A stretch of 64,000 bases of DNA from a virus (Duplodnaviria; Caudoviricetes), in IMG/VR virus record IMGVR_UViG_3300021256_000081, positions 1 through 64,000 of that record. One strand, given 5' to 3'. Within the stretch, counting starts at the first letter, position 1. Each line of letters begins with the position of its first letter. Under the pieces are notes generated by a model, which was not told where the DNA came from, did no database searches, and saw only the letters and a list, made by a program, of their open reading frames with translations. Shown here piece after piece: positions 679-64,000 of this stretch. Both the position numbers and the translations under genes were made by a program.

Positions 679-1008
679 TCAGGCTACCGCCCAGGTTGCC
701 TTCTCCTTGCCCTTAGCAGGAGTCTTGACGAGGTTCGCATCGTTGAGGACACGAGCCGCCTTCTGGTTGGAGAAGCCGAACTCGTTCTGGATGTCAGCGC
801 AGGTTACAGTTCCAACCTGAGCGACATACTCCTGAACCTTGGCGATGTCGTTCTGATGAGCGATCTGAGCCTTAGTCGGCTTGTCAGACTTCACAGTCTT
901 ATGAACGGACTTGCGAGCGCGTTCAACGAGGAAGTCGAAGTCCTCACGAGTGAGAGTTTCGTAAGCGATAGAGTCGATGCGAGCGTTGAGAGTAATCTTG
1001 TTAGTCAT
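679..1008 (-). CDS. winged-helix DNA-binding protein, paralog family B
   Basis: KPTKAQ motif plus C-terminal HTH/wing, similar to 13456-13815. Own promoter and SD, ends in TGA followed by a hairpin. Confidence 0.7.
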   Translation of the reverse strand: MTNKITLNARIDSIAYETLTREDFDFLVERARKSVHKTVKSDKPTKAQIAHQNDIAKVQEYVAQVGTVTCADIQNEFGFSNQKAARVLNDANLVKTPAKGKEKATWAVA

Positions 1009-1099
1009 AGTTTTATCACCTTTCCTTTTCTATATCTGTAAGAGATTTCTTATCTCTTTACATACTTATTATATCATGATTTTTTAAGTTTTTCAACTT

Positions 1100-1190
1100 T
1101 TCGTTTGTAAGGTTGAGAAGGTCCGGGGCGTATAGTCCAGCAGCTCTCCCGTTTTAATTTTTAGGACTTTGTGCCTTCCCTTATCTTACA
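1100..1190 (-). ncRNA. candidate small RNA (ORF-less promoter cassette)
   Basis: TTGAAA-17-TATAAT at about 1195-1223 followed by about 90 nt with no ORF before the next promoter. Confidence 0.35.
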
Positions 1191-1229
1191 TATTTATTAT
1201 ATCATGAATTTTTTAATTTTTCAAATTCG

Positions 1230-1505
1230 TGATATTTCGTCTGAACCCTATTTGTTCCTCACCCCCGATGCCTTCTTTATTTATAGACGCTGCGGACTAC
1301 GGGGAATTTCAGGTAGAGGTAGGGCAATAAGCTAACCATGAACTGATTGGCTTATTGCGATATCTCTATCGCAAGTAATTTAAGGTGAAGTCTATCATCC
1401 TCCAATAGTAGCCGCACCAACCGCAGGGGGCGTAGGTAGAGTGATTAGCTCTACTCCATTCAGCGCTCCCGAGGACTTGAACCTCTGCTTACTATCCCTT
1501 CCTTA
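1230..1505 (-). ncRNA. candidate structured ncRNA with a tRNA T-arm motif
   Basis: Promoter at about 1513-1541. No convincing ORF. GAGG-TTCAAGT-CCTC at 1471-1485 and other hairpins such as TTGCGATA..TATCGCAA. Confidence 0.45.
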
Positions 1506-6733: not shown

Positions 6734-7438
6734 ATGATAGAATTGAATAAGAAATATTCAGGAAAACAGTTAGCAGAATTACTGTTCAATGTTTCTCCTG
6801 GTACTTTTAGAAATGATAAAGAAAGTTATTTAAATTATATGAGTGAATTCTTTGAATGACATCAAGAAGGAACTCGTTATATTTTTACTAGAATTATTAA
6901 GGAATATATTCCGAAAGCAAAAGGTAGAAAATCTACAAAAGAACAAACTTCTACTGATTATAAACATGCAATTTCTGAATTAATTAAAGAGGAACCGTGG
7001 AATACTGGTGCAGGAATTGCAAGAGATATTACTATAAATAATAATTATATGGCATCTACATATCATCATAAGGTTAGAACTGCTTATAATTATACACAGC
7101 CTATAATGAAAACAGATTATGATATTGTTGATAGACGTTGGCGTGCGTATATTGGTGGTGAATATGTGGATATGGAAGATAATGAGCTTATTGAGTGGAA
7201 GAACTTGATGAATGCTTGTTTTGGAAATCGAAAAGATATTTCATTAGAGCAAGATCTTGCGGTTATGCATGATAATGGAGATATTACTGATCAAGAATAT
7301 CAAGAAGCATTAGCGAAGATTAATGATAATAAATATCAGGCGGCATTAGATATGTGGAAACATAAATATGGATATAAGCCCATTAAAGTTAATAAATATG
7401 AGATGAAACTTTTAGAAGCACCCGAAGAAAAAATGTAA
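6734..7438 (+). CDS. hypothetical protein (234 aa with TGA=Trp), possible DNA-binding/replication protein
   Basis: Frame open from ATG 6734 through a single TGA (6857) into the tracked ORF 7049-7438. Flanked by repeats. Confidence 0.6.
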
Positions 7439-8280: not shown

Positions 8281-9201
8281 TTCCTCCTTACGAAGTAAAA
8301 TAAATCCCCTTCTTTCATGTTATGTGGGAATACCTTTCCTTTCTTTTGGTTATAATTTTATGATGCGCGGTAGAGCCTGATAATTTCCTATTGCGCCAAA
8401 AGCCTCTGCATGTTGTGCGGGGGCTTTATTTTTTTATTTAGTGCCGTTCGGTCCGAGAGGGTCCCCCTATTATATTATATAATATTTTATTAAATTTGTC
8501 AAGATGCGCTCTTGGAATGGAGAAACTTTCATATGACTACTTTTGGATTAGCTACGACTTAATTAGAAAGCCGTAGAGCGTTATAAAAGGCCTTCCAAGA
8601 GGCCCATATGAGGGTACAAGTTATGGTATAATATGGTACAACTTACGAACGGGTTGCGGCCAGGCCGTTAAACCGGACGGTTTTTTATTATATTTCCGTC
8701 CGGTATATGTATATACCCCACTTTATTATACCATATTTTTTATAAAAAATCAATAAAATTACGTTAAAACGCAGTCAATTTTGATTAAATATCCAGATTT
8801 TGCGGTATTTTTTGCGTTTTTTAGGTAAAACCGGGCGGTTTTTCTATCAAAAATTACGGTTTTTTTTGTAATTATAACATAAAAATTATGAAAAAGTCAA
8901 TAAAAATGTACTAAAAAGATAAAAAAAGTACAAATTTTGACACAAAATAGTACAAATTCCGTTCGGCGAGGCTAGAATTATTTAATTGTGGCAAAATATG
9001 AAGCATAGTTGCGGGAAAAGGGTTGGCATATGACGGACCGGAGTTGCGAGCTGAAAAATTCCATATGGGAGTGCCGGCCGGAAATTCGGGCCGCTCCTGC
9101 CGCCAGCGGCCCGCCATGCATGCAGGTATCATGCATGCATACACCCGGCAAACATGCATGCATGACCATGTATTAAAAAAAATAATGCATGGCGACATGC
9201 A

Positions 9202-9576
9202 TTACTTTCTGTGTGCTGTGAGTGAAACTGAATAATTCACACCGTTGTACGTAAAGTCGAAACTGCGTTCATCATTTACGATTTTGAGGTTCTCAATCTC
9301 ATCTTTCGGAAGCCCTCGAAACAAAGCGTCAATAAGATACTTTTTGTCGGGGTTATCCTTTTTGGTGCGTTTTGTAGGTGTTGCGCTTGTTTTGCGTGTT
9401 GTAGCGTTTGCGGCTTTGCGTGCGTTTTTCATCTGTTCCGCTGTCAAATCCCACGGCATTTCCTCGCCCCGATCGACTGCCTCGTCATCTTCTACGAGTT
9501 CCTCAGCCTCTTTCCGAGTGATACCCAATGCACGCATGTTTTTCTCGATAAGTGTTTCTTTCAGTTCAGGACGCAT
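9202..9576 (-). CDS. hypothetical protein, paralog family A
   Basis: Similar to 12053-12427 (TREEA..D...DxG; YsVxLTxHR C-terminus). Confidence 0.8.
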   Translation of the reverse strand: MRPELKETLIEKNMRALGITRKEAEELVEDDEAVDRGEEMPWDLTAEQMKNARKAANATTRKTSATPTKRTKKDNPDKKYLIDALFRGLPKDEIENLKIVNDERSFDFTYNGVNYSVSLTAHRK

Positions 9577-9599
9577 GTTTTACCTCTCTTTCTATAATT

Positions 9600-9628
9600 A
9601 TTATATCATAATAATTATTTTTTGTCAA
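9600..9628 (-). promoter_or_regulatory. consensus SigA promoter (representative of the cassette promoters from 8.5 to 21.4 kb)
   Basis: TTGACA-17-TATAAT. Similar elements precede most cassettes, e.g. 13850-13878, 14184-14211, 15397-15424, 17878-17905. Confidence 0.85.
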
Positions 9629-9660
9629 GGGGTGACCGAAAGGGGTTACCCCCTTTCGGC

Positions 9661-10014
9661 TCATGCTTTCGTGAAGTAAGCGATACCCTTTTCTTCGGTC
9701 TTTACAACACGACCATCGAGTTTAAGACCCCGAACGAGCGCATTGACCTTATTGATGGTAAATTCTGTGAGGAAGTCAAACTTCCCAATCTCGGAAACCC
9801 TGTAACGCTTGCCTGTTTCCATAGCGTCATAGATGGCGTTCATGAGTTCAACGTTCGCAAGCTGATTTTTAGTCGGCTTAGTAGAACGCCGAGAATTTTT
9901 AGCGGTCAAGAGTTCAACCTCATGATCGATGAATGCCACGAGGTCATTCTCTCCCTTTTCAACGAGAATCGCACGTACCTTCGCAAACTGTTCCTTTTTA
10001 GTTGTCTTTTCCAT
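9661..10014 (-). CDS. winged-helix DNA-binding protein, paralog family B
   Basis: C-terminal half nearly identical to 12493-12846. Ends TGA then GC hairpin at 9636-9659. Confidence 0.8.
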   Translation of the reverse strand: MEKTTKKEQFAKVRAILVEKGENDLVAFIDHEVELLTAKNSRRSTKPTKNQLANVELMNAIYDAMETGKRYRVSEIGKFDFLTEFTINKVNALVRGLKLDGRVVKTEEKGIAYFTKA

Positions 10015-10681
10015 AATTTATCACCTTTTACCTTTCCTTTTCTATAATAATTTTATCATGGATTTTTATTTTTGTCAATACCTTTTGTTGATTTTTGTAA
10101 GGTTTTTTCTTTCACCGTCCTTCCCTTCCTTACAATTCTATGATAGCACTTTTTAGAATGGCTGTCAATAGTTTTTTTAAGAGATTTTAGATTTTTTTTA
10201 TTTCTTTTTCCTTATCCCTTACAATTATTATTATACTGATTTTTTTATAAAAAACAACATACAGATTTGCAAAATTGTTGCTTGACAAATCGAAAAATCT
10301 GTGATCCAGAAAAAGAGGGTACGGCGCCCGGTATTTTAAAAGTTAGGCTTGACAAACTTCCGGGAATGTGCGTCCAGGGTGTCAAGTGCCTATTTTGGTA
10401 AAAAAAATTACCGTATCTGACACTTGACAAAAAACCGGTCGTTGCTGCAAGCCCGCGCGCCAACGACCGGCGGACATGCATGCATGGAAGTTCATTCCAA
10501 AAGAAAACATGCATGCAATCAGTCTGCAAGCATGTTCTTTAACTTCCTGCGGAAGGCACGCCGAGCACGCACCTTTTCAGCGTGCCATGCATGCGGGTTG
10601 TTCTTAACCCAACACGCAAACCTGCGCGCAAACTTATCTTCGAAAGTTGCTTTTTTGTGAATGTTGCTCTTGGTCATTTTA

Positions 10682-11371
10682 TCACCCCCTTGCAAAGCAC
10701 AAGCGATTCATTTTCTTGTGCTTTGCGAAACAGTATGCGAGAATGTCTTTCTCAATCATTACATCTTCAAGCCCTGTGTGCGATTCCTTGAAATCCTTTT
10801 CGCCTGTGATGAAGCGGTAGATAATTTCAGCGGTGAGCCGTGGTTGTCCTGTTTTTGTGAGGTAGCCATTTTCTACACAATACTTTTGGTAGGTCGGCAT
10901 GCATGCAATTACATCACGAGCCATGCGCAGAGTATCGCAGATTTCAATTCCGTAAGGGAAGAAAAAGCGGAACTTTGATTTTGTAATGTATCTTTGCGTA
11001 TTGTTCAGAGAACCATAGTCGAAACGCATGTTGTGAGCGTAAATTTCTTTTACGTTGTATTCATGCATGTCGTCAAGCAGAGTTTTTCTGATTGAGTACA
11101 TGCTTGCAAGTTTCCGCTCTCCGCTCTTGATTTCCTTTTCGTACTGCGGAAGTTTTTTTGCATAGTACGCAGATTTCATGAGCGTTTTTTCTCCAAGATA
11201 CACATCAGCATTAACAAATGATCGAGTTTTATAAACATTGCCCCTTTTATCGACAATCGCATAACCGACATCATAGACAAGCATGTTATAAGGCGAAACA
11301 CCTTCAAAATCCTTATCAAGCGGACATGTTTCTGTATCAAGCACGATTCTGTAATTAATTCTTTTATCCAT
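10682..11371 (-). CDS. DEDDh 3'-5' exonuclease (DnaQ-like)
   Basis: LDTET...AHNMRFD...CDT...HTGLEDV motifs. Confidence 0.85.
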   Translation of the reverse strand: MDKRINYRIVLDTETCPLDKDFEGVSPYNMLVYDVGYAIVDKRGNVYKTRSFVNADVYLGEKTLMKSAYYAKKLPQYEKEIKSGERKLASMYSIRKTLLDDMHEYNVKEIYAHNMRFDYGSLNNTQRYITKSKFRFFFPYGIEICDTLRMARDVIACMPTYQKYCVENGYLTKTGQPRLTAEIIYRFITGEKDFKESHTGLEDVMIEKDILAYCFAKHKKMNRLCFARG

Positions 11372-11417
11372 TTTCTATCACCTCACATGTATTATTATAG
11401 CAGATTTACAGAAAAGG

Positions 11418-11756
11418 TCAAGCCTTTTCTGTAAAAATTTCTGCAATTTCGTTCGCCTGTTCATAAATGGCAGGAAGTACCCTTTCCATGAGGTAACACA
11501 ATTCTTCCTCATTCTTGAAAGCGATTTCTTCCGCCGCATTGTCGGCTCCCTTATCATACGCAAACAGGGCGAAATGCGTAAATTCATGAATCAGGGTACG
11601 CTTCAACATGTGTTTCGGCATGTTGTTCGCAATGTAAATTTCACCTTCCGTGAAATAGGTCATTCCATGCGCGCCGTCAAGTTTTTTATGATTCGGCTTC
11701 ACATAGAAAACATCAACATCGTAAGCGTTAAAGGTTGCATAGGTCTTTTTCATCAT
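11418..11756 (-). CDS. HExxH zinc metallopeptidase-like protein (ImmA/IrrE-like)
   Basis: TLIHEFTH...EE. Start chosen after the AAAGGGGAG SD. Confidence 0.7.
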   Translation of the reverse strand: MMKKTYATFNAYDVDVFYVKPNHKKLDGAHGMTYFTEGEIYIANNMPKHMLKRTLIHEFTHFALFAYDKGADNAAEEIAFKNEEELCYLMERVLPAIYEQANEIAEIFTEKA

Positions 11757-12052
11757 GGGGCATCTCCCCCTTTCTTCTCTTAAATTATAAGCCCAAGCAG
11801 AAAAAAATGCAATAGACAATTTCAAAAAATTGTAAAGTTTTTGTGTAGGGTACGCGATCCGGAATTTCAGGACATGCGTGCATGCGTTGTCAAGTGTCAA
11901 ATTCGTCAAAAAAATTACCAGATCAGGCACTTGACAAAATCCCGGCCGTGGCGGGGTACCCTACGGGTCGCACACGGCCGGCCATGCATGCATGGGCATG
12001 CAAGCATGGAAACATGCATTAAAAAAAATCCTGCATGCATGCAGGATTCTTC

Positions 12053-12427
12053 TCACGCCTTGGGCGCGCGGTGCTTGGTGAGCTTCACAGTGTAGGCTTC
12101 ACCTGCATGAATGAAGGAGATTTCTGCTTCATTCTTCACTGCAGTAATTTCAACCTCACCTGCGAGCATGGCACGAATCTTTTCGAAGATTTCTGCCTTA
12201 TTCGCATCGACCTTGCGCTCACGCTTTACAGCGCGCTTTTCAGTCGGCGCCTTGTCCGCCTTAGTAAGCGAGCGAATCAGCTTTTTCTGTTCCGCGGTAG
12301 GCGCGCCCTTTTCCTTGTCGCCGTGGTCGATGTCATAGTCCCATGCGAGAATGTCAAGTGCTTCCTCACGCGTGCAGTGATTGCACTGCATCTGATGCTG
12401 AATTTCCTTTTCGGTAAACTGCTTCAA
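12053..12427 (-). CDS. hypothetical protein, paralog family A
   Basis: Paralog of 9202-9576. TTG start after AGGAAGGTGAT, ends TGA. Confidence 0.75.
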   Translation of the reverse strand: MKQFTEKEIQHQMQCNHCTREEALDILAWDYDIDHGDKEKGAPTAEQKKLIRSLTKADKAPTEKRAVKRERKVDANKAEIFEKIRAMLAGEVEITAVKNEAEISFIHAGEAYTVKLTKHRAPKA

Positions 12428-12492
12428 TTTTATCACCTTCCTTTCAGTTCATGCAGGCATGGCAGAGGGCTTGCGCCCCCTGCATGCATACC

Positions 12493-12846
12493 TCAAGCCT
12501 TGGTGAAGTAGGCAATGCCCTTCACTTCAGACTTGACAACGCGACCATCGAGCTTGAGACCGCGGACAAGTGCATTCACCTTGTTAATGGTGTAGTCAGC
12601 GAGGAAATCGAACTTGCCGATTTCAGACACGCGGTACTGCTTACCTGCCTGCATGGAATCGTAAATCCGATTCATGAGTTCAACGTTGGCAAGCTGATTC
12701 TTGGTCGGCTTGGTGTTGCGCCGTGCATTCTTGGCATCGGTCTGCGCGATACGAGAATCCACGAAATCCACGAGGTCAGTGCGACCTGCATCAACAGCGA
12801 GAGCGCGAAGAGCGAGATAGTTGTCCTTAACAGTAATCTTAGTCAT
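12493..12846 (-). CDS. winged-helix DNA-binding protein, paralog family B
   Basis: KPTKNQLANVELMN...INKVNALVRGLKLDGRVVK..KGIAYFTKA shared with 9661-10014. Confidence 0.8.
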   Translation of the reverse strand: MTKITVKDNYLALRALAVDAGRTDLVDFVDSRIAQTDAKNARRNTKPTKNQLANVELMNRIYDSMQAGKQYRVSEIGKFDFLADYTINKVNALVRGLKLDGRVVKSEVKGIAYFTKA

Positions 12847-13353
12847 AGTTTATCACCTTTCCTTTTCTATAATAATTATACTAAAGATTTTTTAAGATTT
12901 CAAATATTCAGTTTTCAAAGAGCACTTGATGCGAGCGGTTGGTCAGTGGGTGGCGCCGTTCCCTTTCCCTTTCCGCATTATTATAATATCATGAAAATCG
13001 GTTTCATGCTGAAAACTTTATGAAAATTTTATGAAAGTTTTTTTGAAAAAAATTGGCTCTTGACAAAAAAATTTTTTGTGCTTAGAACATTTTACCACTT
13101 TTGGCACTTGACAAACAGATGTAGGGTACGCGGATCAAAAATAGGGTACGCGGTTCCGGGAGTCCATGCATGCATACAACATGCATGCAAGTCGCGAAAA
13201 AAATTCACATGCATGCATGCCCTCAAAAATCGCGGCGTTCCAGCATACTGCGTCTGGGAACGCCGCGCCATGCATGCATGGTTAATGCATGTAAAGGAAA
13301 AAACCTGCATGCAGGTTTTTCCGTAAGAAAGGAGGACACATTTTTGGATTAAG

Positions 13354-13425
13354 TCCGCTCAGAGGGATTTGAACCCTCACCCCATCGATTAAGAGTCGAT
13401 TGCGCTACCGTTGCGCCATGAGCGG
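13354..13425 (-). tRNA. tRNA-Lys(CTT), CCA not encoded
   Basis: CCGCTCA/TGAGCGG acceptor, GCGC D-stem, ATCGA-CTCTTAA-TCGAT anticodon arm, GAGGG-TTCAAAT-CCCTC T-arm. Confidence 0.9.
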
Positions 13426-13455
13426 AGAAGGGGAAGGGGCTTTCGCCCCTTCGGA

Positions 13456-13815
13456 CTACTCGGCTTCGTCCTCGTCCTCAGCGATTGCGGAGAAGACAGT
13501 TGCCTTTCCGTCCTTCGCCTTGGCGATTTCGCCTGCATCAACCATCTGCTTGAGCAGAGCAGAAGCCTTCTGACAGGAGATTCCGACAACGTTGCCAACC
13601 TCAGTGGCAGTCAGTGCCTTTTCAGCACCTGCGAGAGCGTCAGCGATGGTCGCCTTGATTCCCTCGTTTTCCTTCTGAGCCTTGGTCAGACCCTTGCGAG
13701 CAGTCGCCTTCCGAACGCTCTTGAGCGCACGCTCCTTGAGGAACTCGAAGTCTTCAGCAGTCAGACCCTCGAATGCGATTCCGTTGATTCTTTCCTTGAT
13801 TGTAACCTTTTCCAT
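13456..13815 (-). CDS. winged-helix DNA-binding protein, paralog family B
   Basis: LTATEVGNVVGISCQKASALLKQMVDAGEI HTH, N-terminus similar to 679-1008. Confidence 0.8.
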   Translation of the reverse strand: MEKVTIKERINGIAFEGLTAEDFEFLKERALKSVRKATARKGLTKAQKENEGIKATIADALAGAEKALTATEVGNVVGISCQKASALLKQMVDAGEIAKAKDGKATVFSAIAEDEDEAE

Positions 13816-14019
13816 TTTCATCACCTTTTACCTTTCCTTTTGTGATTTCATTATAGCACCGATTTGGCTCAGTGTCAAGCCCCCTTTTCAGATTTTTTTA
13901 CCGCAATTCTTTTTTTTCTTGCGAACCAAGTAGGCACTGTCGATTGGGCTTTCAGTCGTTCCTATCTCTTGGTAATTCTATTGTAGCACTTTTGTTGTAG
14001 GTTGTCAATACTTTTTGAA

Positions 14020-14175
14020 GATTTTTTTGAGAGTTCCTGTTCTACTCTCTGCGTAGGATACGCGTCCCCTACTCAAGCCATCGGAGAACTATTGTTTTTT
14101 TGGTTGGTGGGAGTCGCTCCGAGGACTCTTAACGTCACACCCTAACGGGTTTGTGGGGTTTTCCTTCCCCTCTTT
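14020..14175 (-). ncRNA. candidate structured RNA (ORF-less cassette)
   Basis: Promoter 14184-14211, GC-rich hairpins (GAGTC..GACTC, GCGTA..TACGC, GTTCT..AGAAC), no ORF. Confidence 0.4.
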
Positions 14176-14242
14176 ACACTTTTATTATAGCACCTTTTGG
14201 CTATCTGTCAAGTGTTTTTTTAATTTTTTTTGTAAAGATTTT

Positions 14243-14832: not shown

Positions 14833-14881
14833 TTATTTTTCCTCTCTTTCTATAATTATTATAACAGATTTTTTTTAATTG

Positions 14882-15094: not shown

Positions 15095-15126
15095 TTTTAT
15101 CTCTCTCTTTCTATAATTATTATAAC

Positions 15127-51200: not shown

Positions 51201-53014
51201 GAGTAGAAATAACTCCTTCTACAGCTAACGCACAATATTATCCATCTTTTACAGCAGAATGAGAATTAGAGCCAACTTCTATTTTCTTTTCAAATATTGC
51301 TTATGAAAGTCAATTTTCTAAGAAAGCAAGCAAGTTAGCTATTGATTGTTATGATGGAACAAGCCTAGTATATACAGTTCCATTATTAATTTTACAAAAT
51401 AAATATCAAATTCCAGCTCTTAATAGATGGAATGGTAAATTATTAGTAGATAGCGATAACAACCAGATTATGGCTGCTACTATTAGCGCAGGTCATAAAG
51501 AGCAGAATAATTCTTTTACTGGAATTATTATGGGAGATATTCGAAAGAAAGATGGCCTACGAGAAGCATATACACCAATATCTGGATTATTTGGATATAA
51601 TACAGGTGCGCAATCATTTGGATTTCAGACTGATGGTACTGGATTTATAGGCAAATCTGGAACTGGTAGAATTGAATTTAACGGAGAAAATGGTTGAATT
51701 CAAAGTGGCAATTATAGTGCTTCAGAAAATGCGGTTAATCGTTCTGGAACTAGGATAGATCTTGATGATGGATCTATTGATATGTGAGGACGAGGTGTTA
51801 CTTATACTTATAGAGAAGATAAGAATAGATATGAAACTTCTAATACCGGAGTTGGCGATGTTAGTACAAATATCCATTTAGATACTGCTGGAACTATTAG
51901 CAAACCTTATTTTAAGATAGAAGTACCTAGATATTATACTACTAATAATAGGGGTACTGTCAGTAGCTCACAAACTAATAATCCTTCTTATGATAGAATT
52001 TCTTTAATGCAAATAGATCAAAGTAATTTCTATTTACAAACTGCGGATTATGATGAATCTAGAAATACTGGATTAAAGATTGATTTAAGGCAAGGAATTT
52101 TTGATAGCAAAGGAAAACTTACTATTAATGGTGCTCTTGGTTCTGAAATTAATTTTGGCTCTGGTGACAATAATATTAGAATGGGTATCTATGGAAATGG
52201 TACTGCTTATTTAACCGCAACAGGTACATTAAATATTACTGGTAATGAAAATTCTAGAATTGATTTTGGTGAGTATTTAACTATTACAGGTAGTGGTACT
52301 GGAAATAGAATTGGTGGTAGTACATTATCTAATAGTGGTATTCATGCAGATAATGCTAATTGAGGAATTAATTCTGATGGTAGTGCTTATTTTAAAAACG
52401 TAAGTGTTACTGAAAATAGTACATTTAATTTAGGTACTCAAGGAATTGGCGGAAATGGTATTTCTTTTGGAAATGGATTCGCAAGTTTTTCTGGAGATAT
52501 TTATGCAAATAATGGATACTTTACAGGAACTGTAAGTGCTGCTACTATTACTGGTGGTACAATTACTGGTGCAGCAATAAGTGGTGGATCTGTTACTGCT
52601 GAAAGTTTGACTGTTGGCGGTGTTTCTGTTAGTCCATCAAGCTTTAATTTTATTACTGGATTAACCGTAAATTTAAGTAGTGGTTCTATGCCTATGGTAA
52701 CTGATGTTACTTGAAATGGTGCTTCAATTTCTAAATCAACTACTAATTTAAATTTTGTTAATAAAGTATCAATTTCTTGAACTAAAGCAAAAGCATATAT
52801 GCTTGGTGGAGTTTCAATAACAGGGGGAGATTCTCAAGTAGAAGTAAATAATACTTCTGGTGGAACTCCTCATACAGTAGTTAATTTAAATGACTACTAT
52901 GCAACTAAAGGACATGATCATGATGACGTATATGCTAAATTGGGTCATAGTCATAGTGGTACTAGTGGTCCAGGTGGCGCAGATTATCATACACATTATG
53001 TATCAGTAGATTAA
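48206..53014 (+). CDS. tail tip/spike-like protein, about 1602 aa (TGA=Trp)
   Basis: Eight fragments in one frame. Gly-rich beta-repeat C-terminal third and HxH motifs (GHDH, GHSH, HTH) at the end. Confidence 0.7.
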
Positions 53015-53454: not shown

Positions 53455-56400
53455 ATGGCAAAGTTATACCCTCCATATTTAGAAGGAACATTGCCAGCTT
53501 TCTGCCTTGATGCGAGTGGGGATGGTGTTTTAACCATCCCTTTTGCGCATAATAAGGCAGTAAGTATTGATGATTTTGGAAGTATTTCTGTCAAAGTAAA
53601 AACTGTTCAAAATGATTTATTTATTGCTGATTTTAATACGAAAGATGAAGATTGTGGATGAGAAAATAAAGCAATTACAGAATTAAAATTTACTGTTAAA
53701 AATTTTGCCATAGGTGATAAATGAACCGATATTAAAGTAGGACAGTTTTATAAAATCCAATTAGCTTATAGGGACAGAAATGACGTTGTTGGTTATTTCT
53801 CAACTGTTGGAGTAACAAAATGTACATCTTTACCAAGCGTAACGATTAAAGGTTTTGAACCTCCAAATGTAGTTAATAATAATGCTCCAGAGTTTTTAGG
53901 AGTATTCATGCAGGCTAAGGATGGAGATATTACTGAAAAAGTATATTCTAGTCGTTTTATCATAACAGATATTGCGAACAATGTTATAGAAGATACTGGT
54001 GATGTTTTACATAATATAGAAAATAATCCAAATTCATATGAATCTGTTGATAGCTTTGAATTTAATAGAGATTTGAATTTTGGTGAGATATATAAAATAC
54101 GATATATTGTAACTACTACTAATGGATGCGAAATCTCTAGTCCAGCATATTTAATGACACAGCAGAAATCTTTAGCGATGGAACTTAAAGGAGATTTGCT
54201 TGTTGATTTAAATTATGATGAAGGTTTCGTAGATGTTAGTATTAAAGGTTATGTTGATGAAAATGGAATAGAAGAAAAGGGTAATGGAACTTTCTTGTTA
54301 TCAAGAGAAGATTCTGTAAATCCAGGAGTATGAGAAAAGTTATATAAGTTTGCGCTTAAATACGAATCTCCTACTAAAACTATTTTTAGAGATTTTACTA
54401 TTGAGCATGGTAAAACATATACATACTCTTTACAACAATATAACGAGAATAAAATTTATTCTGGAAGAAAAAAGTCTAATTCTATATATGCGGATTTTGA
54501 GGACATGTTCTTATTTGATGGAGAACGTCAATTAAAGCTTCGTTTCAATCCGCAGGTTTCTAACTTTAAGACTCAGTTATCTGAATCCAGAAGTGAAACT
54601 ATTGGTAGTAAGTATCCTTTCTTCTTCCGTAACGCAAAAGTTGGATATAAAACATTCCCAATCTCTGGATTGATTTCAATGTTAAGTGACGATAATGAAT
54701 ACTTTACTTCTTATAATAGCATTTTAAGAGAAGATAAAGAAGGAGAACGTCATGATGTTGAGTATGATAAGTTTATTCGTCCAACAGTTCAAAAAGATAC
54801 TGATTTAATTTCTGAAAATATCGCATCAGAACGTTTATTTAAACTAAAGGTTCTTGACTGGGTAAATAACGGAAAAGTTAAATTATTTAGATCTCCTAAT
54901 GAAGGTAACTATATTGTGCGCTTAATGGATAACTCTTTAACTCCAGAAAACGGCCTTGGCCGCATGTTGCACAATTATAGTGGAACTGCTTATGAGTGCG
55001 CAGATTATACATACAGAAATCTTGTAGATTTTGAGATTATTGATGATACATCTAGCGCAGATAATGAAGAACAAAAGGCGTATGTTACGACCTGGAGAGA
55101 AAAACGTTTAGAGGATTTCGCTAAGAATAATATACTTAGTCCTTCTGGATTGGATTTTGAAACTGGCATAAATGGTGGAAAGGCTTCTAAAAATCTTCTT
55201 GAAGCTGATATTCAAGATGTATATACTAAGAATTTAAAATTTACAGATTTCTTACCTGGAACCAGAATTAGATTAGTATTTGACTTTACTGGTGATTTTG
55301 ATTCAGATGATTATGAAGAAATCACAATTGGCTCTACTGGCGCATATTTTGCGAATGACATTAGAAGAGTCTATGGTATTTATTTATTAAATGATAGTCA
55401 GACTTGGATAAGTTATCAAGATTATCTTCGTTATCAAGATTTAAAAGAATCTAGAATCAAAGAGGCTCTTGGTGAAGATAATTATGCTGTTTATGAAGAT
55501 ATTAGAGATTTTACAAAAGATTTAGTTAATCAGCTTGATAATGGTATCGATAAACAAACAGTAATGGATTCTTGGGTTAATAAAATTATTACAATTCTAT
55601 ATGAATCAAATAATATTATTGATCCAGTTACTGGTGCAACAATAAATGGGTTTGATCATGATAATACATGACAAATCTTAAATAATTCTCCTTTGGCAAA
55701 AAGTGATGTTATAGGAATGTTGGTTTATTATCTATGGAATACGCAAAAAGATCCTTCTAAGAGAAATGTTTTAAATAATTTTAAAGAAGAAGTCGTCAAG
55801 AAATTGCCAGAAGATGTTATTGCTGCTTATGCTAAAGAAAATCCAAAATGAGCAGATAATTTTACCTTAACAACTCAAGATGAATGAAAACAAGCTTGAG
55901 AAAAAGAATATGCTAAGGATAGAGAAACTTCTCTTAAAGAAGAATTTTATCAGAGATATGGAGAAGATATTTCTGATGAAAGATTTAATGTCTTATGAGA
56001 AGAGGATGAGTATGAGGAAGGAATTACTTGGAAAGAGAAATTAGAACAAGAAATTCAAGATCATAGTTGAAATAAAGTCTTCATTAACAATATTACCGAA
56101 TGGTGAGAATCACCTCGTTTAACCGCAAGAATGAGTGAATTAGTTAATTGAAATACTTTTGTTTCTCTTCAGACGGTTAGATTACAGCTTTCTGGTTTAG
56201 AAGAAAGTTATGAATCTGCGGTAAAAAATATTGATGCAGTTAAAAAGAAAAAGAAGAGTTTTGAGAAAATATTAGAAGAACGAGTTGCTCAAAAAGAAGA
56301 AATTACTGCTGATGTTACCGCATTAGAAACTCGTTTAACTGCTGTACAAGAATCTATTGAAGAAAAAGAGACAGCGATTGAAGAGGCAACTGCAGCAGAT

Positions 56401-58911
56401 AGTAGTGATTTAAGTGTTTTAGAGAATGAGCTTAAAGAATTGCAAAAGAATAAATCTGATTTAGAGAGAGATATTAAGGGATTGCGCAATAGTATTGTTA
56501 ATATTGAAGATATTCTTGTTAATACTCAAAAATCTATTGATGAATATGCGGAAAAGATTGAAACATATGAAAATATTATTGAACATTATGAGGAAGATAA
56601 AGCTAATTATTTGCAACAAATTGCCGATAATAATGCAATTTTAGCAGAACCTCCTTATAGTGAATTTAGTCTAGAATATAAATTCATAGAACCTTCTGAT
56701 AGTTTAATTCTCTGGAACAATTGGAATAATGTAAAGACTTATTTACAAGAAGCTACTTTAAAAATGCCAGTTCCATGGACAAATGTAAAGCCAGATGGAT
56801 CCACTGAAACAAGTAATTTATATCGTTTGCCTGTTGTCTATTCAACTGCTAAAAACGCAGTAAATTCAGCATGAGATCAGTTATATCAAACTTTAATGGA
56901 TAAAACACCTTATGATGAAATTGAAGATGCTGTAAATAAAGTAGTCAGTGAATTAAAGAATATTCCTTATCCTACTGGAGAAGGAGTATATTATGATAAC
57001 AATGGTAACCCTGTATATACTGATAAATATTGGTGAGATAAATGATCTATGGCAACTGATTCTATTTATTGCGGAACGTTGCAGTCAGGAAGTGGAACCA
57101 TTATTTATCAATATGATGTTCCTGTTAGAAATAATTTTGATTCTATAGAAGCAGTACAAACAGATATTGGTTCTTATAGACAAATTGTTGGTCCAATTAA
57201 AGATATCGTTAAATCTGCTATTTCTCCCGATAATGGCGTTACTGAAAATGTGCGTGAAGAAATGACTAAGATTTGTATGTCAAATTATCACAAGCGTCCA
57301 GTTGGTTATCTTTACTCTAAAGAAGAATGAGATAATCCTATTTATGACAATATCTTTGAAAATCGTAATGTAGATCAACAATATAGAACGGTTAGAGAAG
57401 ATTTGAAACTTTATTGGGACAATAATTTTGATGAATCTAGAGTTTTTAATGACGAAGAATCTATGAAGCAATCACCATTTGCTTTATATGTAATAGCTTC
57501 TCCTATTATCGGAAATCAAAATTATTATGATCATATACACACTTCTGCTTACAGTGATTTTACGGTAAGCAATAATAAGATATGACTTAAGTTACATCAA
57601 CAAGCTAATTCATTAGATACTATTATTAGATATGGTGAAATTAGAGATGCTGAAGCTGTTGCTATTTTGAACTATGGCATTCGAACACATTTAGACTGGG
57701 AACAACAAGATGATAAGTACAAGATAAATCATCCTTGAAAAGACTTCTCTTTAAGCTATGGAACGCAGATAGGTACAGATGAAGAAAAACTTATTTATAA
57801 AAATTCTAAGCAACTATGGGATTCTAATAACAAAAATATTCGCACAAGAACCTGGGCTGTAATGCATTTGAATGACGAAACTTTAGCAAAGAAGATTGAA
57901 GATTTTTGAACTAATAATATTAGACGAAGAGCTGACAGCAATAAAACAGAATTCTCTATCTTATTCCCTTCTGGAGTGGTAGATTTATCTAATATAAATG
58001 ATAATCAGTTAAAGTGGGTTGTAAATAATTTATCTGATTTAATGTATGAGTTAGAGAATCACCCAGATAAAGGTATTTCTTCATATTTCGCAGTTTCAGA
58101 CGAACAAGTGCATGATGAGTTATTCCCTAATGTAGATGTAACAGAAGAGGTTGGCGCGCATGTAGCATCACATCTCTTTGAGAAGTATTTTATAGACGCT
58201 ATTATAAATCAGAGAAATGCTGAAGAGCTTATTACTAGATTAAGTGGTTTATATACTTCTATTCAGAATTCAAAAGATAAGTGATATTCAGAGTATATTA
58301 AAGAAAATTCTACAATAACATATGATGAATATTTGGAAGCATTAAATAATTTAAATGAAATTTGATTAGAGCAACCAAAAGTTTATGTGCTAGATGCTTG
58401 AAGCGGTAAGATTCATGCTATTGGAGATGATTATTTATATGAACCAATTATTCGTTTTGATGGCAGTAGAATTGATTTAAGAGAGATTGAAAACTATTCA
58501 TTAGATGATCTTGATGCTTCAATCACAACAATCGACGTGGGTAATGGCGTTTATGGTGAAATATTCTTCAGACAAGCAACAAAGACTTATGAGTTAGAGA
58601 AGATAGAAAAAGAAGTAGTTACTTTAAAAGAGAACTGATCTACTCAAAAAGGCTTGCTTGACAATGTTCATTATTATTATCCTTTTGCTAAGGATAAGAA
58701 CAATATATATAAATATACATCAAATCCTGATCAATATAATAAAGATATTTCTACTGATCAAGAAGTAGTAGATGATTATAGTATTAAATATTTAAATGCT
58801 TTAGATGCAGAAAAAGAGGCTTATATTCTATATCTTGCCGCATTAAAGAAGGCAATAGATGAATGAGTTACTCAGAAATCAGAAGAAGTTTCTAACGCGT
58901 TGAATCAGTAA
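53455..58911 (+). CDS. large tail/baseplate protein, about 1818 aa (TGA=Trp)
   Basis: Eight fragments in one frame. Ig-like beta N-terminus, ETIGSKYPFFFRN...FPISGLIS distal-tail-like segment, internal coiled coil. Confidence 0.7.
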
Positions 58912-58928: not shown

Positions 58929-61900
58929 ATGAGAAATCCATTGTTAGATGAAGATTTTCTTCATGAATTAGATTTATATCATCATCATCATACTTGGGCA
59001 AAAATTATTTCATTGGATTTTAATGAATATCCATTAGAAGAGATAAGTGGAAAAGTTTCTGCTGGAAGTATAAATATTGATGGAAACTCAGCGGTTAGAA
59101 GAACATGCTCTCTAACTCTTTTGAGTGATGAAGTAAATATTAATGATTTCTACTGAGGATTAAAAACTAAGTTTAGATTATATATTGGTTTAGAGAATCA
59201 AATTAATGATCAATATATAATTAAGAAAAAGGTAGAATTACAAAATAGTATAGATGCGGCTATGGCTAAAGGCGAATCTACGGTAGATTTACGTTATCGC
59301 TTAGAACATATAGAGGAGTTATACAGATACCCTGATATTATCTGATTTAATCAGGGTATCTTCCTCATATCTTCTTTCAATTGCGCCGCAGGTGTAAATA
59401 AATATACTGTATCTATTCAGGGTAAAGATAAAATGTCTTTATTGAATGGAGATATGGGCGGTGTTATTCCAGCGTCATGAGATTTCGGAACTATGGATGA
59501 AAATGTCCTTGATGAAGAAGGAAAAACTGCTTATGATGCTTCTGGTTATGCAATTATTAAAAATACGCAAATACCTATCAAAGATATTGTTCTCCAAGCA
59601 GTCCATGAATTCGCGCAAGAGAAATGACAGAATATTATAGTTAATGACCTAGATGACTATGGTATTGAGTTATTAGAATATGAAGGAACTACTCCTTTAT
59701 ATTATATCATTAAAGTAACTAATAGTGGAACGGATTCAAGAGAAGTATCCAATATGACGCTTGATGAAAATATGGAATGTATGGTAAAAATCGTCGATTG
59801 AATTGACGATAAGCCTGTTTCTCTTGGATGGGCATCTACTCGAACTAAAGTAGAGACAGACGAGAACAATAATTCTGTTTCTAAACAAGTTGCTATAAAA
59901 ATTAGTGAGCTAGATTCTGATTGGATCACGGAGACTGCGACCGCCGAGGGCGCAATGGCTGAGCATCCCCCAAAATACTCGTATGAAAGGCTCATTGAGG
60001 AGTTAGATCCAAGCGGTGCAGTAACCGAGTCAGTTAATTATTATAGAACTAGAATTGCATTTCCAGATGATTTCTATTATGAAACAGCCTATGATGATGA
60101 AGGAAATGAAGTTCAAGTTAAAGTATATAATGAATATACTGTTGCTAAGATTACTAGAGATAATGGATTAAATGTTTGTGGTTATAGAATCTGTGACATT
60201 GTTTATCCATATGATTTAATAGCTTCTCCTGGAGATACTGTTACTTCAGTTCTAGATAAGTTAGTAAAAATGCTTGGAAACTTTGAATATTTTTTCGATG
60301 AAGATGGACGTTTCATTTTCCAAAAGAAGAGAACATTCTTAGATGTTTCTTATAATAATATAATTAATGAACACTCTATCTCTCCAGAAGTATGGGCAGA
60401 TAGTAGTATGTTTAATACAAAATATAGTTATACTTTTGATAGCAATACACTAGTATCTTCTATCCAAAATAATCCAAATTTACCTCAGTTAAAAAATGAT
60501 TATTCTATTTGAGGCGCGCGACAGAATGGAAATGTTACAATTCCAATTCACATGCGCTACGCAATAGATAAAAAACCTTATGGTTATAGAACATTTGATA
60601 CTGTTGATGAAAATGGCATAATAACCAAACCTGGTGCATGATACTGAACTGAAGAGGGTTTGGGTTATAGACAAAGACGCATGGAAGTTTTAGCGCAAGA
60701 ATTTAAAGGAGAAGAAGGCGGAAGTGTCGAATCTTATGAAAAATATTCTTACACTAAAACTCCAAATGAAAATGGATTGCCAGAAACTTGGTGAGATGTA
60801 CAAGACTGGGCAAAATATTATGGTTTAATTGCGGCACTACAAGATGGAAAAAATCCAGATAGAATGACGCAAGAAGAGCTAGAAGAGTATTATCCTAAAA
60901 ATTACTTAATGTTTTATAAATCAGATGAAACAAAATATCCATTACCAACTTATAAAGAAGTTGCTTCTTATTTAGGGGTGGAACCAGATTATGGCTGAAA
61001 TGGAACTTTACAGATGGTTATCCAACAAGAAGATGGATCTTGAGATAGTCATGGTTCTAACTGTTCTCATTCCTATTTCCAATTTATTCCTAATTATGAA
61101 GTATTAGATGAAAATGGAAAAACTAAATATTATATAGATAAAGAACATGGCATTTCAGTCCCAATGAGAACAACTTCGGGCATTTATGAAAATACTAAGG
61201 TTTATATTTATAGACCTACCTTCCCAGGAGAATTGGATTATTCCTATGAAGATGGTGGGGTTACAACTATTGATGTTTCTGATTATGCAAAAGATCAAAC
61301 CTATATTGTCGATTGAAGAGAAGTTATTTATCAAATGGCAAATGATTATCGAAGACATTATAGAGAAGATGATTTCTTAATTACATTAAGAGATAATAAT
61401 AAGATTTTATATTATAATAATACTCCTATTGAATCATTATATCCTACTGGATATACTGGGTATGAAAACTATTATATAGATTTTGAAATGAATCTCAGTC
61501 AAGGAGTTGTGGCTTATTGAAGAGAACTATATAATCCAGAAACTATTAATGATAAAAAAGAAAATCATACGGGATATTATAATTCTGATGGAACTTTTGA
61601 ATTAGATACAGATGTGGCGCTCTGATCTGCAGGAACTACTTACCAAAAAGGAGATAGAGCTGCCGTTGAAGAAGATGGAGAACGAGTTATTTATAAATCT
61701 TTAAAAAATAATAATGTAGATACAGTTCCTTCTTCAACCAGTCCAAGTTGATTAGAAACTCCAGGTCAATTCACTTATAATTCAGATGGTTGAAATATTG
61801 AAATTTTAGATAATCCTGAAATGTTAAATTTCTGATTTGATTTCCTTGATTCCAAGGGAGAGATGAACAAATACACTGTCCATAATATAGGAATGAGGTC

Positions 61901-62306
61901 AAAAGCTACAAATGATGATAAGATAAAAGCCATCTATTTTAGGGAAACGCCCAATGTAATTTTTGATGTTGAGGGAGAAACGGTTCAAAAGGATAATTGA
62001 ACTAAACCTGGATATTGTTATATCAGTATTCCAGCAGCATTAAATGATTTATTCCATATTAGTTCGCGCGGTAAAAACTGCATGGATGTAGTAGAGGAAT
62101 ATTTGTATAATTATGCTTATCCGATAAGCTCAATTACATTGAGTACAATACCTATTTACTACTTAACTCCTAATACCTTGATCTATGTAAATGATCCAGA
62201 TACTGGAGTTGTAGGTGAATATATAATGACAAAATATAGTATTCAATTAGGTTTAAATTCTAGTATGTCTATAACTGGAAATGAAACCGCAAAGAGACTA
62301 TATTAA
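58929..62306 (+). CDS. tail hub/Tal-like protein, about 1125 aa, with a CBM5/12-like insert (TGA=Trp)
   Basis: Four fragments in one frame. GSINIDGNSAVRRTCSL, FEYFFDEDGRFIFQKK, IPIYYLTPNTLIYV. Confidence 0.7.
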
Positions 62307-62321
62307 GGAGGAAAATGAGGA

Positions 62322-62714
62322 ATGGCTAGAAAAATCAAACAATTTCGATTGTATAATGCTCCAGTCCGCAAAAGTACAGGTGAATATGATTATACATATT
62401 GTACAAACAATTCACCTGCAGAAACTTCTGCCTCAAAGAATATTTTAGAAATGTTTGAATCTGGAGAAGTATTTGAAAGTGTTTATCCAATTTCAGAACT
62501 AGGCATACAAGCTCCACCTGGGACAAAATTCTATTTAAATGGAAGTGTGTATCCAATAGTAATGGGAGCTTCTGGAATTTACGATTTAGATATTAAAAAT
62601 GGTGCAAGAGTCACTGGTTTAAGTTTTCATCGAGAGTCTTTACAAGACATCGTAACTAGTGGCTCTAGTTACCTTATTGTAGATGTATTGTATGGAGAGG
62701 AGGATTTAGACTAA
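62322..62714 (+). CDS. hypothetical tail protein
   Basis: ELGIQAPPGTKFYLNG...GIYDLD. Confidence 0.75.
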   Translation: MARKIKQFRLYNAPVRKSTGEYDYTYCTNNSPAETSASKNILEMFESGEVFESVYPISELGIQAPPGTKFYLNGSVYPIVMGASGIYDLDIKNGARVTGLSFHRESLQDIVTSGSSYLIVDVLYGEEDLD

Positions 62715-64000
62715 TGGGTTTCTATGGCAATATAACCAACATAAATAAATCTAGTTTTAGTTTTGATAAGATTTATGCCAATAGAAAAGAAATGGACGCA
62801 AATGCGGCCATTGATGGTGTTTATGTTGGAAGATATGTTCTTGTAGATTATGATAAAAAGAGCATACTAGCAACTCAGGCAAGTGAAGTTGCGGATTCAT
62901 TTAATGTTTCCAATGATCCTCTTCGATATGCAAATATTGTAGAAGGCTTTGAGAAATACTATAATTATAATTTAGATTTATTAGAGCAAAAAACAAATTC
63001 TAACTTGCGTCCAGCTTGAATGATAATACAAACAGATGGAAGTTATGAATTTCACACAGGTCCTTCTTATGCAACTCCAGTATATGAATTTTCCGAAGAC
63101 AGCGGAGAAGGATTACACGCAGGAGATTTAGTTCTTTTATTAGGAAAGAGAAAGTGTATTTCTGAAATTCCTGATAACTTGAAATTTACAGATGCATATG
63201 AACTAGAGAATTATCAAAGTAATGAATTAGCTAGTATTATAACACAAGATGGTGCGGTTTATTCTTACTTTATTCCTGAGATATGGTACTGCACTGGTGG
63301 CAGACCTATTGAATGGTCAAGCAATGGAATTGACTATATTAAAACAGTTGCAACATTTGAAAAGAGTTCTATCACTTATTCCGAACAGATTGATATGAAC
63401 AATGCAACCCTCTTCAATAGCAACTATTCAGAAGATGCTGTTGCTTATGGAAAGATTGGTAGAGGTTGGGATTCTACCGTTTGACAGAAAACAACTGGCG
63501 TAAATGCAAAGGGACAGGTTGTTAATAAATATGTAATGATCGCTGAACTTAATTCAGTAGTTCCTACATTAGATATTTCTGTTGATGCGCCTACACAAAC
63601 TCCAATCGCGCCACATTTTGGTACAGATATTTCAAATGTTTATTATAAAATGCATATTCAGCCAACTTGGGGTATGAGAATAAAGAGTTCTTACTCTGAC
63701 TACACAACAGATCAAAAGAGATATCCTTCTGATATTAGTGGAGCTTTCTTAATTGATACTTTACTCAGTGATGGTACTGTTGCTAGAATTGGTAGAAGAG
63801 TTAAGACATTACCGGACGGAACAACTCAAATTGTAGATTATCCTCCAGTATTGGATGAATTTGGCAATGTTGTTCCAGAAGATATCGAGGATATGCCATT
63901 AGCAATTTACTTTAATAAAGATGGCTTTGATCCATATCAAGCTTCAGATGCGCTTACAACAGTTGAACATGATTATGGTTCAGAAGCATTAAAGAGTATT
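62714..64000 (+). CDS. large tail fibre/receptor-binding-like protein, truncated by the window (TGA=Trp)
   Basis: TAATG coupling, fragments 62714 and 63020 in frame, GRGWDSTV(W)QK. Confidence 0.65.

Follow-up and report, generated by a model that had tools for sequence, protein, structure and literature searches.

Comparison with orthologues confirmed a predicted double use of TGA within a single phage genome, as stop codon in a block of early genes and as tryptophan codon in the late virion genes. The stretch of DNA analysed (64,000 nt, hereafter the window) is best explained as the left part of a tailed phage genome of roughly 165 kb, and the contig to which it belongs (87.7 kb) represents 46% of the genome by completeness estimate. 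Near-complete relatives (G001, G002 and G003) and a complete relative (G007) were used for comparison. The phage family also has TAG-recoded and standard-code members.

Block-wise dual coding has already been published by Borges et al. (bioRxiv 10.1101/2021.08.26.457843) and by Yutin et al. (2021; PMC7886860), and Mgcod is an annotation tool for block-wise multi-code genomes (bioRxiv 10.1101/2022.06.29.495998). The first-pass annotation, made from the letters of the window, was right that stop-codon recoding concentrated in late genes is described for gut phages (Borges et al.). Since the two-code switch is known from gut phages, the phage studied here is a clear new example and no new principle. 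It is an unusually clean, orthologue-tested case of one codon with two meanings per genome, and single-code gene calling errs in one half of such genomes. Two observations go beyond the published picture: TGA was not depleted as a stop, being instead the most frequent one among early-block genes and in four cases part of a following -35 box; and in the relatives a suppressor tRNA is present but usually split by an intron.

Early genes

The early block (8474..21333, minus strand, standard code) consists of about 28 small genes in a row, arranged behind consensus promoters of sigma-70 type. For most of them, a separate TTGACA-N16-18-TATAAT promoter and an AGAGAGG-type ribosome site were recognised; between 8474 and 19910, the minus strand has 13 perfect promoter matches (12 of 12 positions). 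Repeat families D1, D3, D5 and D7 lie within the block. Stops of the 28 ORFs preceded by a ribosome-binding site were TGA in 13, TAA in 11 and TAG in 4 cases. All 15 positions at which the first-pass annotation had placed TGA-ended genes (679 to 20896) proved to be TGA ends of minus-strand ORFs, which contain no internal TGA and 20 TGG in total. The lack of internal TGA in ORFs called with code 11 is a circular observation, and comparison with orthologues was therefore taken as the decisive test.

Early orthologues in G001-G003 terminate at one and the same residue, with TGA, TAA and TAG interchangeable, and similarity ceases there, so that TGA is a genuine stop of the early genes. Orthologues did not routinely extend past the TGA, in line with the earlier reading: for six of the eight TGA-ended early genes having orthologues in the relatives, one or more orthologues terminate at the corresponding residue. 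The gene at 12053..12436 ends in HRAPKA-TGA, and the same residue is followed by TGA in G003, TAG in G001 and TAA in G002. The gene at 16055..16465 (weak NT5C-like signal, ILWG-TGA end) has its stop at the same residue in all three relatives (TGA in G001 and G002, TAA in G003). An early-type gene at 679..1008 ends in TGA followed by a hairpin; TAG stands at the same residue in G002 and one residue later in G001 and G003. The KFKRA-TGA end of 18172..18612 corresponds to KLKNA-TGA at the same residue in G002. BLAST matches that seemed to span this TGA were extension artefacts on inspection. The paralogues 9661..10014 and 12493..12846 both end in FTKA-TGA and continue into hairpins (-20.9 and -26.8 kcal/mol; repeat family D6), as had been described, the former hairpin being of terminator type. 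Orthologues of 9661..10014 end in FTKA-TGA (G002), FTKI-TGA (G001) and FTKI-TAA (G003).

Exceptions were the TGA-ended gene 17243..17653, with two orthologues longer by 6 and 16 residues, and 10682..11371 (229 aa, weak DnaQ-like exonuclease signal, TGA-TAA end), with one orthologue 2 residues shorter and another 18 residues longer. A genome-wide BLAST map of TGA codons as "spanned or ended" suffered from noise, since ORFs that are off-frame or antisense score as well, and inspected cases alone were used.

Directly after the early TGA stops, a hairpin or the next promoter follows. The gene at 15519..15923 ends in TGA with a terminator, and 4 of the 15 TGA stops sit inside the -35 box of the next promoter. 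These belong to 11418..11756 (weak M78/IrrE-like peptidase signal), 14882..15130 (stop within the TTGACA of the next cassette), 16513..16797 and the 40-aa ORF 19907..20029. TGA also ends 15127..15372 and 20896..21162. All of these genes lie on the minus strand. Tandem back-up stops were considered and rejected, the next TAA or TAG within 10 codons in 8 of 15 genes being not clearly above composition by a rough estimate. A DUF7352 gene and a FolD-like gene (22195..23248, minus strand) use the standard code with TAA stops. The sole tRNA of the contig is a tRNA-Lys(CTT) (13353..13425, minus strand), which G002 has too.

Late genes

The plus-strand block that extends from 23.5 kb up to the end of the contig contains 30 ORFs, ending in TAA (25) or TAG (5) and never in TGA. 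In-frame TGA (136, vs 149 TGG) occurs at least once in 22 of the 30. Late genes for portal, TerL, tape measure and tail proteins each form one frame with TGA read as tryptophan and end in TAA or TAG, in agreement with the first-pass annotation. On the plus strand, these are the terminase large subunit TerL (25877..27706, 2 TGA, TAA end), the portal (28077..29687, 2 TGA, TAG end; phrog_2739, 2.1e-80), the tape measure protein (39887..48094, 2735 aa, 25 TGA, TAA end) and giant tail/baseplate proteins at 48206..53014 (11 TGA), 53455..58911 (23 TGA), 58929..62306 (18 TGA) and 62714 onward to 64000 (7 TGA). A TGA-free virion protein of 378 aa (31757..32893, plus strand) is probably the major capsid protein, judged by its position. 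The TGA at 63017, directly followed by an ATG at 63020, was rejected as a late-gene end and taken as sense because the relatives have both flanks in one frame.

Alignment of 18 late proteins with 55 related loci gave 884 cells opposite late TGA codons. Tryptophan occupied 487 of these, followed by TGA (110), F (72), L (59), Q (34) and Y (33). Of the 21 TGA positions with at least 20 aligned cells, 15 had tryptophan as their most frequent residue, and at portal TGA position 102 it was present in 52 of 55 cells. In the reverse alignment, in-frame TGA of the relatives stood opposite TGA of the phage in 110 cells and opposite W in 80.

Recoding was previously assigned to the late genes, which held, but it is not confined to structural genes. 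A non-structural gene to the left of the early block (6734..7438, plus strand) also has an in-frame TGA read as tryptophan; it is 62.8% identical to its G001 counterpart over 253 aa across the TGA, and a stop-like codon occupies this column in all three relatives (G001-G003). The two-block arrangement recurs in G001, where a plus-strand block (22.9-99.9 kb) is full of TGA and 23 of 27 minus-strand ORFs of at least 200 aa (105-159 kb) are TGA-free. The complete relative G007 has the same two-block TGA pattern.

The recoded block is opened by an HTH and zinc-ribbon protein (23518..24618, plus strand) with 3 in-frame TGA and a sigma-70-type promoter upstream. It matched phrog_5767, which is labelled "sigma factor" (1.1e-45), and had no Pfam, NCBIfam or PDB sequence match. 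Its structure model (pLDDT 75) gave no Foldseek match at E ≤ 0.001. With VIA-align, all scores were below Z = 8 (small terminase HTH 7.4, sigma-H 6.6, SigB 6.0).

Suppressor tRNA(UCA) and its intron

Neither a suppressor tRNA(TCA) nor a release factor had been seen in the window, and none was found in the rest of the 87.7-kb contig. With 46% of the genome in the contig, the lack of a suppressor in the window is explained and uninformative. In the related genomes, a Trp-like tRNA(UCA) follows the orthologue of 82221-82928 at a distance of 19-25 kb, so that the expected site is beyond the contig end. Five intron-carrying records were searched for the missing half of the genome and had no overlap with the contig. 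Matches to release factors (PF00472) and to class Ib synthetases including TrpRS (PF00579) were absent from all four records searched (G000-G003).

Split tRNA(UCA) genes were detected in G001 and G002 by the intron option of ARAGORN. G003 has an intron-less tRNA(UCA) that is syntenic with the split site of the other two, and by blastn with this gene neither G001 nor G002 had an intact copy. A search with the intron core yielded nine loci, all with the same tRNA exons split by a group-I-like intron of roughly 200 nt. With 196-211 nt excised, default ARAGORN called tRNA(tca) in 8 of the 9 loci; the remaining locus is distinguished by a long extra arm. All four stems (acceptor, D, anticodon and T) form across the intron, with a compensatory change in 36 of 70 consensus pairs, and the insertion point is in the anticodon loop between anticodon nucleotides 34 and 35. 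The group I model RF00028 matched in G001 over the full model with 34.9 bits (gathering 50) and E = 4.3e-7. It gave no match in G002 at E ≤ 0.01 and none in a joint search of the nine loci at E ≤ 0.1.

The tRNA(UCA) was carried by G001, G002, G003, G007 and five further loci, i.e. by every relative examined. In the complete genome G007, there is no Trp or TCA tRNA besides the split tRNA(UCA). A tRNA-Trp(CCA) is present in G001 and G003 and absent from G002 and G007. ARAGORN intron-option calls with "introns" of 0.3-2.4 kb, including one at 14242-14687 of the window, were false and disregarded. Two extra Rfam tRNA matches missed by ARAGORN (in G002 and G003) had CAU- and UCC-type loops and are no suppressors.

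Standard finders miss the tRNA(UCA) in this clade because the intron splits the gene. A "missing suppressor" puzzle is raised by Borges et al., Yutin et al. (PMC7886860) and Babkin et al. (PMC10607447), and for this clade there is a concrete answer, a tRNA that is present and intron-split. The passages on introns in Borges et al., Yutin et al. and the Zeta-crAss paper mention no intron-split suppressor, and no published description of one was found in the freely accessible main texts covered.

Proposed mechanism and alternatives

Sequential use of the two TGA meanings, with a phage tRNA-Trp(UCA) as the switch, is the preferred reading, at a probability of roughly 0.85. The host would be a standard-code, probably Gram-positive-type bacterium, its code being suggested by early genes in which TGA stops function downstream of host-type promoters. 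At the start of infection, the small cassettes, with their consensus promoters and strong ribosome sites, would be transcribed by host RNA polymerase, and translation of the early proteins by host ribosomes would stop at TGA through release factor 2, and also at TAA or TAG. Later, the phage Trp-type tRNA with anticodon UCA would build up and TGA would be read as tryptophan. Packaging, head, tail and fibre proteins would be completed only after the switch, which the product of 6734-7438 and the HTH protein of the late block would likewise need. The suppressor gene would lie outside the contig, as expected from the relatives, usually with a group-I-like intron. This order in time is suggested by the promoters, the genome studied here presumably has the same tRNA(UCA), and the intron of the relatives may be self-splicing. 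Several points count against the scheme. With 25 TGA in the tape measure gene and host RF2 present, very efficient suppression would be demanded, for which no explanation is offered. The contig has no suppressor, release factor or TrpRS gene and three relatives have no release factor or TrpRS, the group I score of 34.9 is below the gathering value, and the orthologues of 17243 and 10682 differ in length.

If the host always read TGA as tryptophan (uniform code 4), early proteins would simply have short unconserved tails. The TAA or TAG within 10 codons of 8 of the 15 early TGA would fit such tails, and so would a contig without suppressor tRNA and two near-complete relatives without an intact tRNA(TCA). 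However, TGA, TAA and TAG interchange at one aligned residue where similarity ends, and some read-through extensions would be 45, 54 and 81 codons long and enter promoters or the next gene. Moreover, replication genes of the relatives are TGA-free and use TGG, which would not be required in a code-4 host, and the relatives have their own tRNA(UCA). Uniform code 4 is thus rated very improbable. An explanation that dispenses with a phage suppressor is judged improbable: host RF2 would be disabled late, and an ordinary tRNA-Trp(CCA) of host or phage would misread TGA. A tRNA-Trp(CCA) is indeed encoded by G001 and G003, no release factor gene was found, and a suppressor was detectable in only 35% of TGA-recoded genomes in Borges et al. 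Against this stands a conserved tRNA(UCA) with compensatory stem changes in every relative examined. A Hirsh-type reading via phage tRNA-Trp(CCA) was dropped because G002 and G007 lack that tRNA and all have tRNA(UCA).

Reading TGA as glycine under code 25, the situation in Gracilibacteria or Absconditabacteria phages, would account for the open frames and nothing beyond them. The first-pass annotation had named glycine opposite TGA as evidence against recoding to tryptophan; it was found in 0 of 884 cells, against 487 with tryptophan, which refutes code 25 and leaves it with next to no probability. An assembly chimera, in which standard-code sequence at 1-23 kb (partly with GC of 40-48%) had been joined to a recoded phage fragment, would agree with the GC content of 0.39-0.48 at 8-22 kb vs 0.28-0.38 in the late block. 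In each of G001, G002 and G003, however, these early genes likewise adjoin this late block, and a chimera is regarded as extremely improbable.

Within the preferred reading of a tRNA-Trp(UCA) switch, the two meanings of TGA might form a working timer rather than a tolerated relic, a doubtful proposal in which three steps act jointly. A pre-tRNA-Trp(UCA) would have to be spliced and then accumulate. The HTH/sigma-like protein, expressed from a host-type promoter and, given its 3 TGA, made only after the switch on the timer reading, would drive late expression or packaging. TGA-ended early proteins (13 of 28) would then be read through and extended, which would help to shut off the early programme. 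If this were true, the high use of TGA stops in early genes would be selected, the opposite of "deplete first, then recode".

Comparison with known systems

Group I introns are known from bacterial tRNA anticodon loops, for example in cyanobacterial tRNA-Leu(UAA) and Azoarcus tRNA-Ile. The intron of the relatives is similar in length (~200 nt) and in its insertion behind U34 of the anticodon loop, with a U at the end of the 5' exon, a G at the end of the intron and a conserved GACUA...UAGUC core. It differs in that the host gene is a phage stop-codon suppressor, the Rfam score is below gathering and splicing is predicted; the element lies outside the window. A reference on such introns is PMC13168695.

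Borges et al. describe TGA-recoded (code 4) gut and rumen phages, e.g. of the Agate and Jade clades. As here, structural and late genes are where in-frame TGA read as tryptophan is concentrated, replication genes keep the standard code, a standard-code host is predicted, suppressor tRNAs often escape detection, and one clade unites standard, TAG and TGA codes. These authors propose that TGA stops are depleted before recoding, with 4 of 146 genes ending in TGA in a standard-code relative, whereas TGA is the commonest early-block stop here (13 of 28 ORFs). With clades compared by description, a further difference is that the relatives studied here have no RF1/TrpRS "code change module"; such "code change" genes occur in some clades only and are no required feature. 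The crAss-like phages, with late-gene reassignment of TGA or TAG (Yutin et al. 2021, PMC7886860), resemble the present case in genomes built of blocks with different codes and in switches over short phylogenetic distances, but belong to an unrelated order and have Bacteroidota hosts.

The nearest named phage was phAss-1 (OQ749652), whose portal shows 35.3% identity across 87% of the query. As described by Babkin et al. 2023 (PMC10607447), the Phassvirus group shares a similar gene order, recoding mainly in virion genes and, with the clade studied here, many tRNA genes. According to the same text, phAss-1 reads TAG as glutamine and has intact tRNA-Sup(CTA) genes, whereas TGA is read as tryptophan in the present clade.

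Late genes

The contig is a single sequence of 87,733 bases, of which the window covers the initial 64 kb; its completeness is rated at 46%, and no terminal repeat was found on it. From 23.5 kb onward, the plus strand yielded many short ORFs under translation table 11 and a continuous row of large genes only under table 4. PHROG profiles assigned terminase-related families (25877-27706, plus strand), the portal (28077-29687, plus strand, 2.1e-80), the tape measure protein of 2735 residues (39887-48094, plus strand) and further virion proteins in this late block. The probable major capsid protein (31757-32893, plus strand) was assigned from its position. Giant tail and fibre proteins fill the remaining contig to 87.6 kb. 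By portal, the nearest named phage is phAss-1 (35.3% identity), described in the available text of Babkin et al. (PMC10607447) as a gut phage of 136 kb in which TAG is decoded as Gln. The next portal matches were SPbeta-like, phiCD211-like and similar large Firmicutes phages.

The late block of the whole contig holds 30 ORFs, which end in TAA (25) or TAG (5) and never in TGA. Together they contain 136 in-frame TGA and 149 TGG codons, with 25 TGA in the tape measure gene; eight, among them 31757-32893, lack TGA. For residue assignment, every TGA in 18 late proteins was rendered as X, and the translations were aligned in tblastn with 55 related loci, of which IMG/VR supplied 53 and GenBank relatives the others. 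Opposite the contig TGAs, 884 cells were obtained: W 487, TGA 110, F 72, L 59, Q 34, Y 33 and R 26. Gly was found in none, so the alternative that TGA encodes glycine was not borne out. At 21 positions there were at least 20 aligned cells. Trp was the most frequent residue at 15 of them; the other six, mostly in variable N-terminal parts, had Q, F, L, R/K, M or Y. In the reverse comparison, in-frame TGAs of relatives lay opposite a contig TGA (110 cells) or a contig W (80 cells). Judged from these alignments, TGA is read as tryptophan in the late genes, as the first-pass annotation had proposed. A candidate late gene end at TGA 63017 was rejected; this TGA is better read as sense because its two flanks share one frame in relatives.

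Three further genes were recorded in this region. A FolD-like methylenetetrahydrofolate dehydrogenase/cyclohydrolase gene lies just before the late block on the minus strand (22439-23248, Pfam 8.7e-36 and 3.2e-22). An HNH or homing-endonuclease gene (27676-28065) lies between terminase and portal, overlapping the terminase end, and contains no TGA, whereas homing endonucleases reported for other recoded phages are recoded. A tail protein of 2614 residues (contig 71536-79380, or 9536-17380 in L001, the right part of the contig) has a BspA-type leucine-rich repeat and a weak CotH-like segment, with 5 TGA vs 36 TGG.

Early block

The early block (8.5-21.3 kb, minus strand) consists of small genes arranged one after another. 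All 15 accessory ORFs listed earlier as ending in TGA did so, with no internal TGA and Trp as TGG (20 in total). Alone, this test is circular, and orthologues were therefore compared in three near-complete relatives, G001-G003 (161-178 kb, rated 93-95% complete). Eight of the TGA-ended genes, named here by the coordinate of that end, had orthologues there. Across four genomes, 12053 ends in HRA(P/K)KA followed by TGA, TGA, TAG and TAA, both 9661 and 12493 in FTK(A/I) followed by TGA, TGA, TGA and TAA, and 16055 in TGA, TGA, TGA and TAA. Against the TGA of 679, orthologues have TAG at the identical residue or one residue later, and the G002 orthologue of 18172 stops with TGA at the identical residue. 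Under a uniform code 4, early homologues should routinely extend past their TGA. Clearly longer orthologues were found only for 10682 (one by 18 residues, another being two shorter) and 17243 (two, by 6 and 16), and in none of the eight genes did similarity continue beyond the TGA. BLAST extensions across TGA at 12053, 12493 and 18172 were rejected as artefacts of a shared terminator or an in-frame downstream gene. Early TGA stops are followed by a hairpin or the next promoter. Orthologue ends thus indicate that TGA is a stop in the early block, again as first proposed.

By a rough count, the 28 RBS-preceded early ORFs end in TGA (13), TAA (11) or TAG (4). TGA ends 11 of the 13 early ORFs of at least 88 aa; those below 70 aa mostly end in TAA.

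The early cassettes (8474-19910) are of very regular design. Perfect TTGACA-N16-18-TATAAT matches (12-of-12 sigma-70 consensus) number 13 on the minus strand at 8474-19910 and only 2 on the plus strand within the first 20 kb. Every perfect match has an AGAGAGG-type ribosome site downstream, and most have an extended -10 TG. At 11418, 14882, 16513 and 19907 gene end and next promoter overlap, the TGA stop forming part of the next TTGACA (-35 hexamer).

The palindromic motif CATGCATGCA occurs 83 times at 9100-21700 with one mismatch allowed (5.7 expected). All copies but one lie in the early block, mostly intergenic and often paired, and the motif may be an operator or other protein-binding site. 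A lone tRNA-Lys(CTT) gene lies inside the block at 13353-13425, with two copies in the equivalent regions of G002.

Extent of the two codes

The proposed division into recoded late and standard-code early genes held for both blocks. It did not cover the plus-strand gene 6734-7438, which lies outside the late block and has an in-frame TGA that is conserved in 3/3 relatives and flanked by similar sequence on either side. The boundary between the codes does not just separate virion genes from all others. The first late-block gene, placed by orthologue alignments at a true start of 23518, is preceded by a sigma-70-type promoter in 4/4 genomes and still holds in-frame TGA codons. PHROG labels it 'sigma factor'; only a helix-turn-helix region was confirmed, with weak likeness to sigma region 4 and small-terminase HTH domains. 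On the replication side of G001, 23 of 27 minus-strand ORFs of at least 200 aa lack TGA and end in TAA or TAG, and the complete genome G007 has the same pattern. Among the 55 loci (L003-L058), 15 have in-frame TGA, 33 in-frame TAG and 7 neither; one phage family holds all three code states.

Suppressor tRNA in relatives

The first-pass annotation saw no tRNA(TCA) in the window, and none was found there or in the remaining contig; tRNA-Lys(CTT) is the sole tRNA of the whole contig. The near-complete relatives carry 22-29 tRNA genes. There, default ARAGORN called tRNA(TCA) only in G003 (95 nt, long extra arm). With the intron option, tRNA(tca) was called in G001 and G002 at the syntenic position just past the late block. 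The split exons begin with AGGGG and carry A1-U72 and G73, features of bacterial tRNA-Trp; their D and T arms are similar to those of the phage's own tRNA-Trp(CCA). The insert separates nucleotides 34 and 35 of the predicted mature loop, CUU|CAA(A/C); U is the last base of the 5' exon, and G that of the insert.

The G001 insert matched the entire Rfam group I intron model (34.9 bits, E 4.3e-7), short of the gathering score of 50. For the G002 insert no match was obtained at E <= 0.01, nor did a joint search of nine loci yield any at E <= 0.1; we attribute this to the filters of the search, given the plain homology of the inserts. An intron-core scan of IMG/VR returned these nine loci, all with the same kind of exons and two in records rated 100% complete. 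After in silico removal of 196-211 nt, default ARAGORN called tRNA(tca) in 8/9. In a consensus fold of five distinct sequences, all four tRNA stems close across the insert, and 36 of the 70 pairs show compensatory changes. In complete G007, the split tRNA is the only one of Trp or TCA type.

In relatives, tRNA(UCA) is reached 19-25 kb past the orthologue of 82221-82928; the present contig stops 4.8 kb past that gene, and absence here is therefore expected. The tRNA(UCA) of G003 (58412-58506 in its locus L100) and of another relative's locus, L121, has a long extra arm with CCA in the loop; in L121 this loop is CUCCAAC and thus identical to the anticodon loop of tRNA-Trp. Such an arm could keep TrpRS recognition. 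Searches of the relatives for release factor and TrpRS genes were negative. Next to the tRNA arrays lies a tmRNA (G001 138397-138751, G002 147276-147625) with the tag peptide ANF(V/I)K...APSYQV(T/A)(F/L)AC.

Proposed mechanism and comparison with published recoding

In the mechanism we consider most likely, host polymerase and standard decoding would express the early cassettes first, many of them ended by TGA. Phage tRNA-Trp(UCA) would then accumulate and open the TGA-containing genes; suppression would have to outcompete RF2 across 25 TGA in one gene. The early-then-late order, a standard-code host and self-splicing of the tRNA intron are presumed here.

The two-code observation is confirmed and its interpretation supported; dual coding of this type is already known. 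Late-gene TGA or TAG recoding beside standard-code early and replication genes is described in the available text of Borges et al. (bioRxiv 10.1101/2021.08.26.457843), Yutin et al. (PMC7886860), Babkin et al. and Mgcod (bioRxiv 10.1101/2022.06.29.495998), as are code changes inside one clade and suppressors that could not be found. A search of openly accessible main texts turned up no published account of a suppressor tRNA split by an intron. The route in the available text of Borges et al. has 'TGA stops depleted first', whereas the present early block uses TGA stops heavily, which is the one point against that route.
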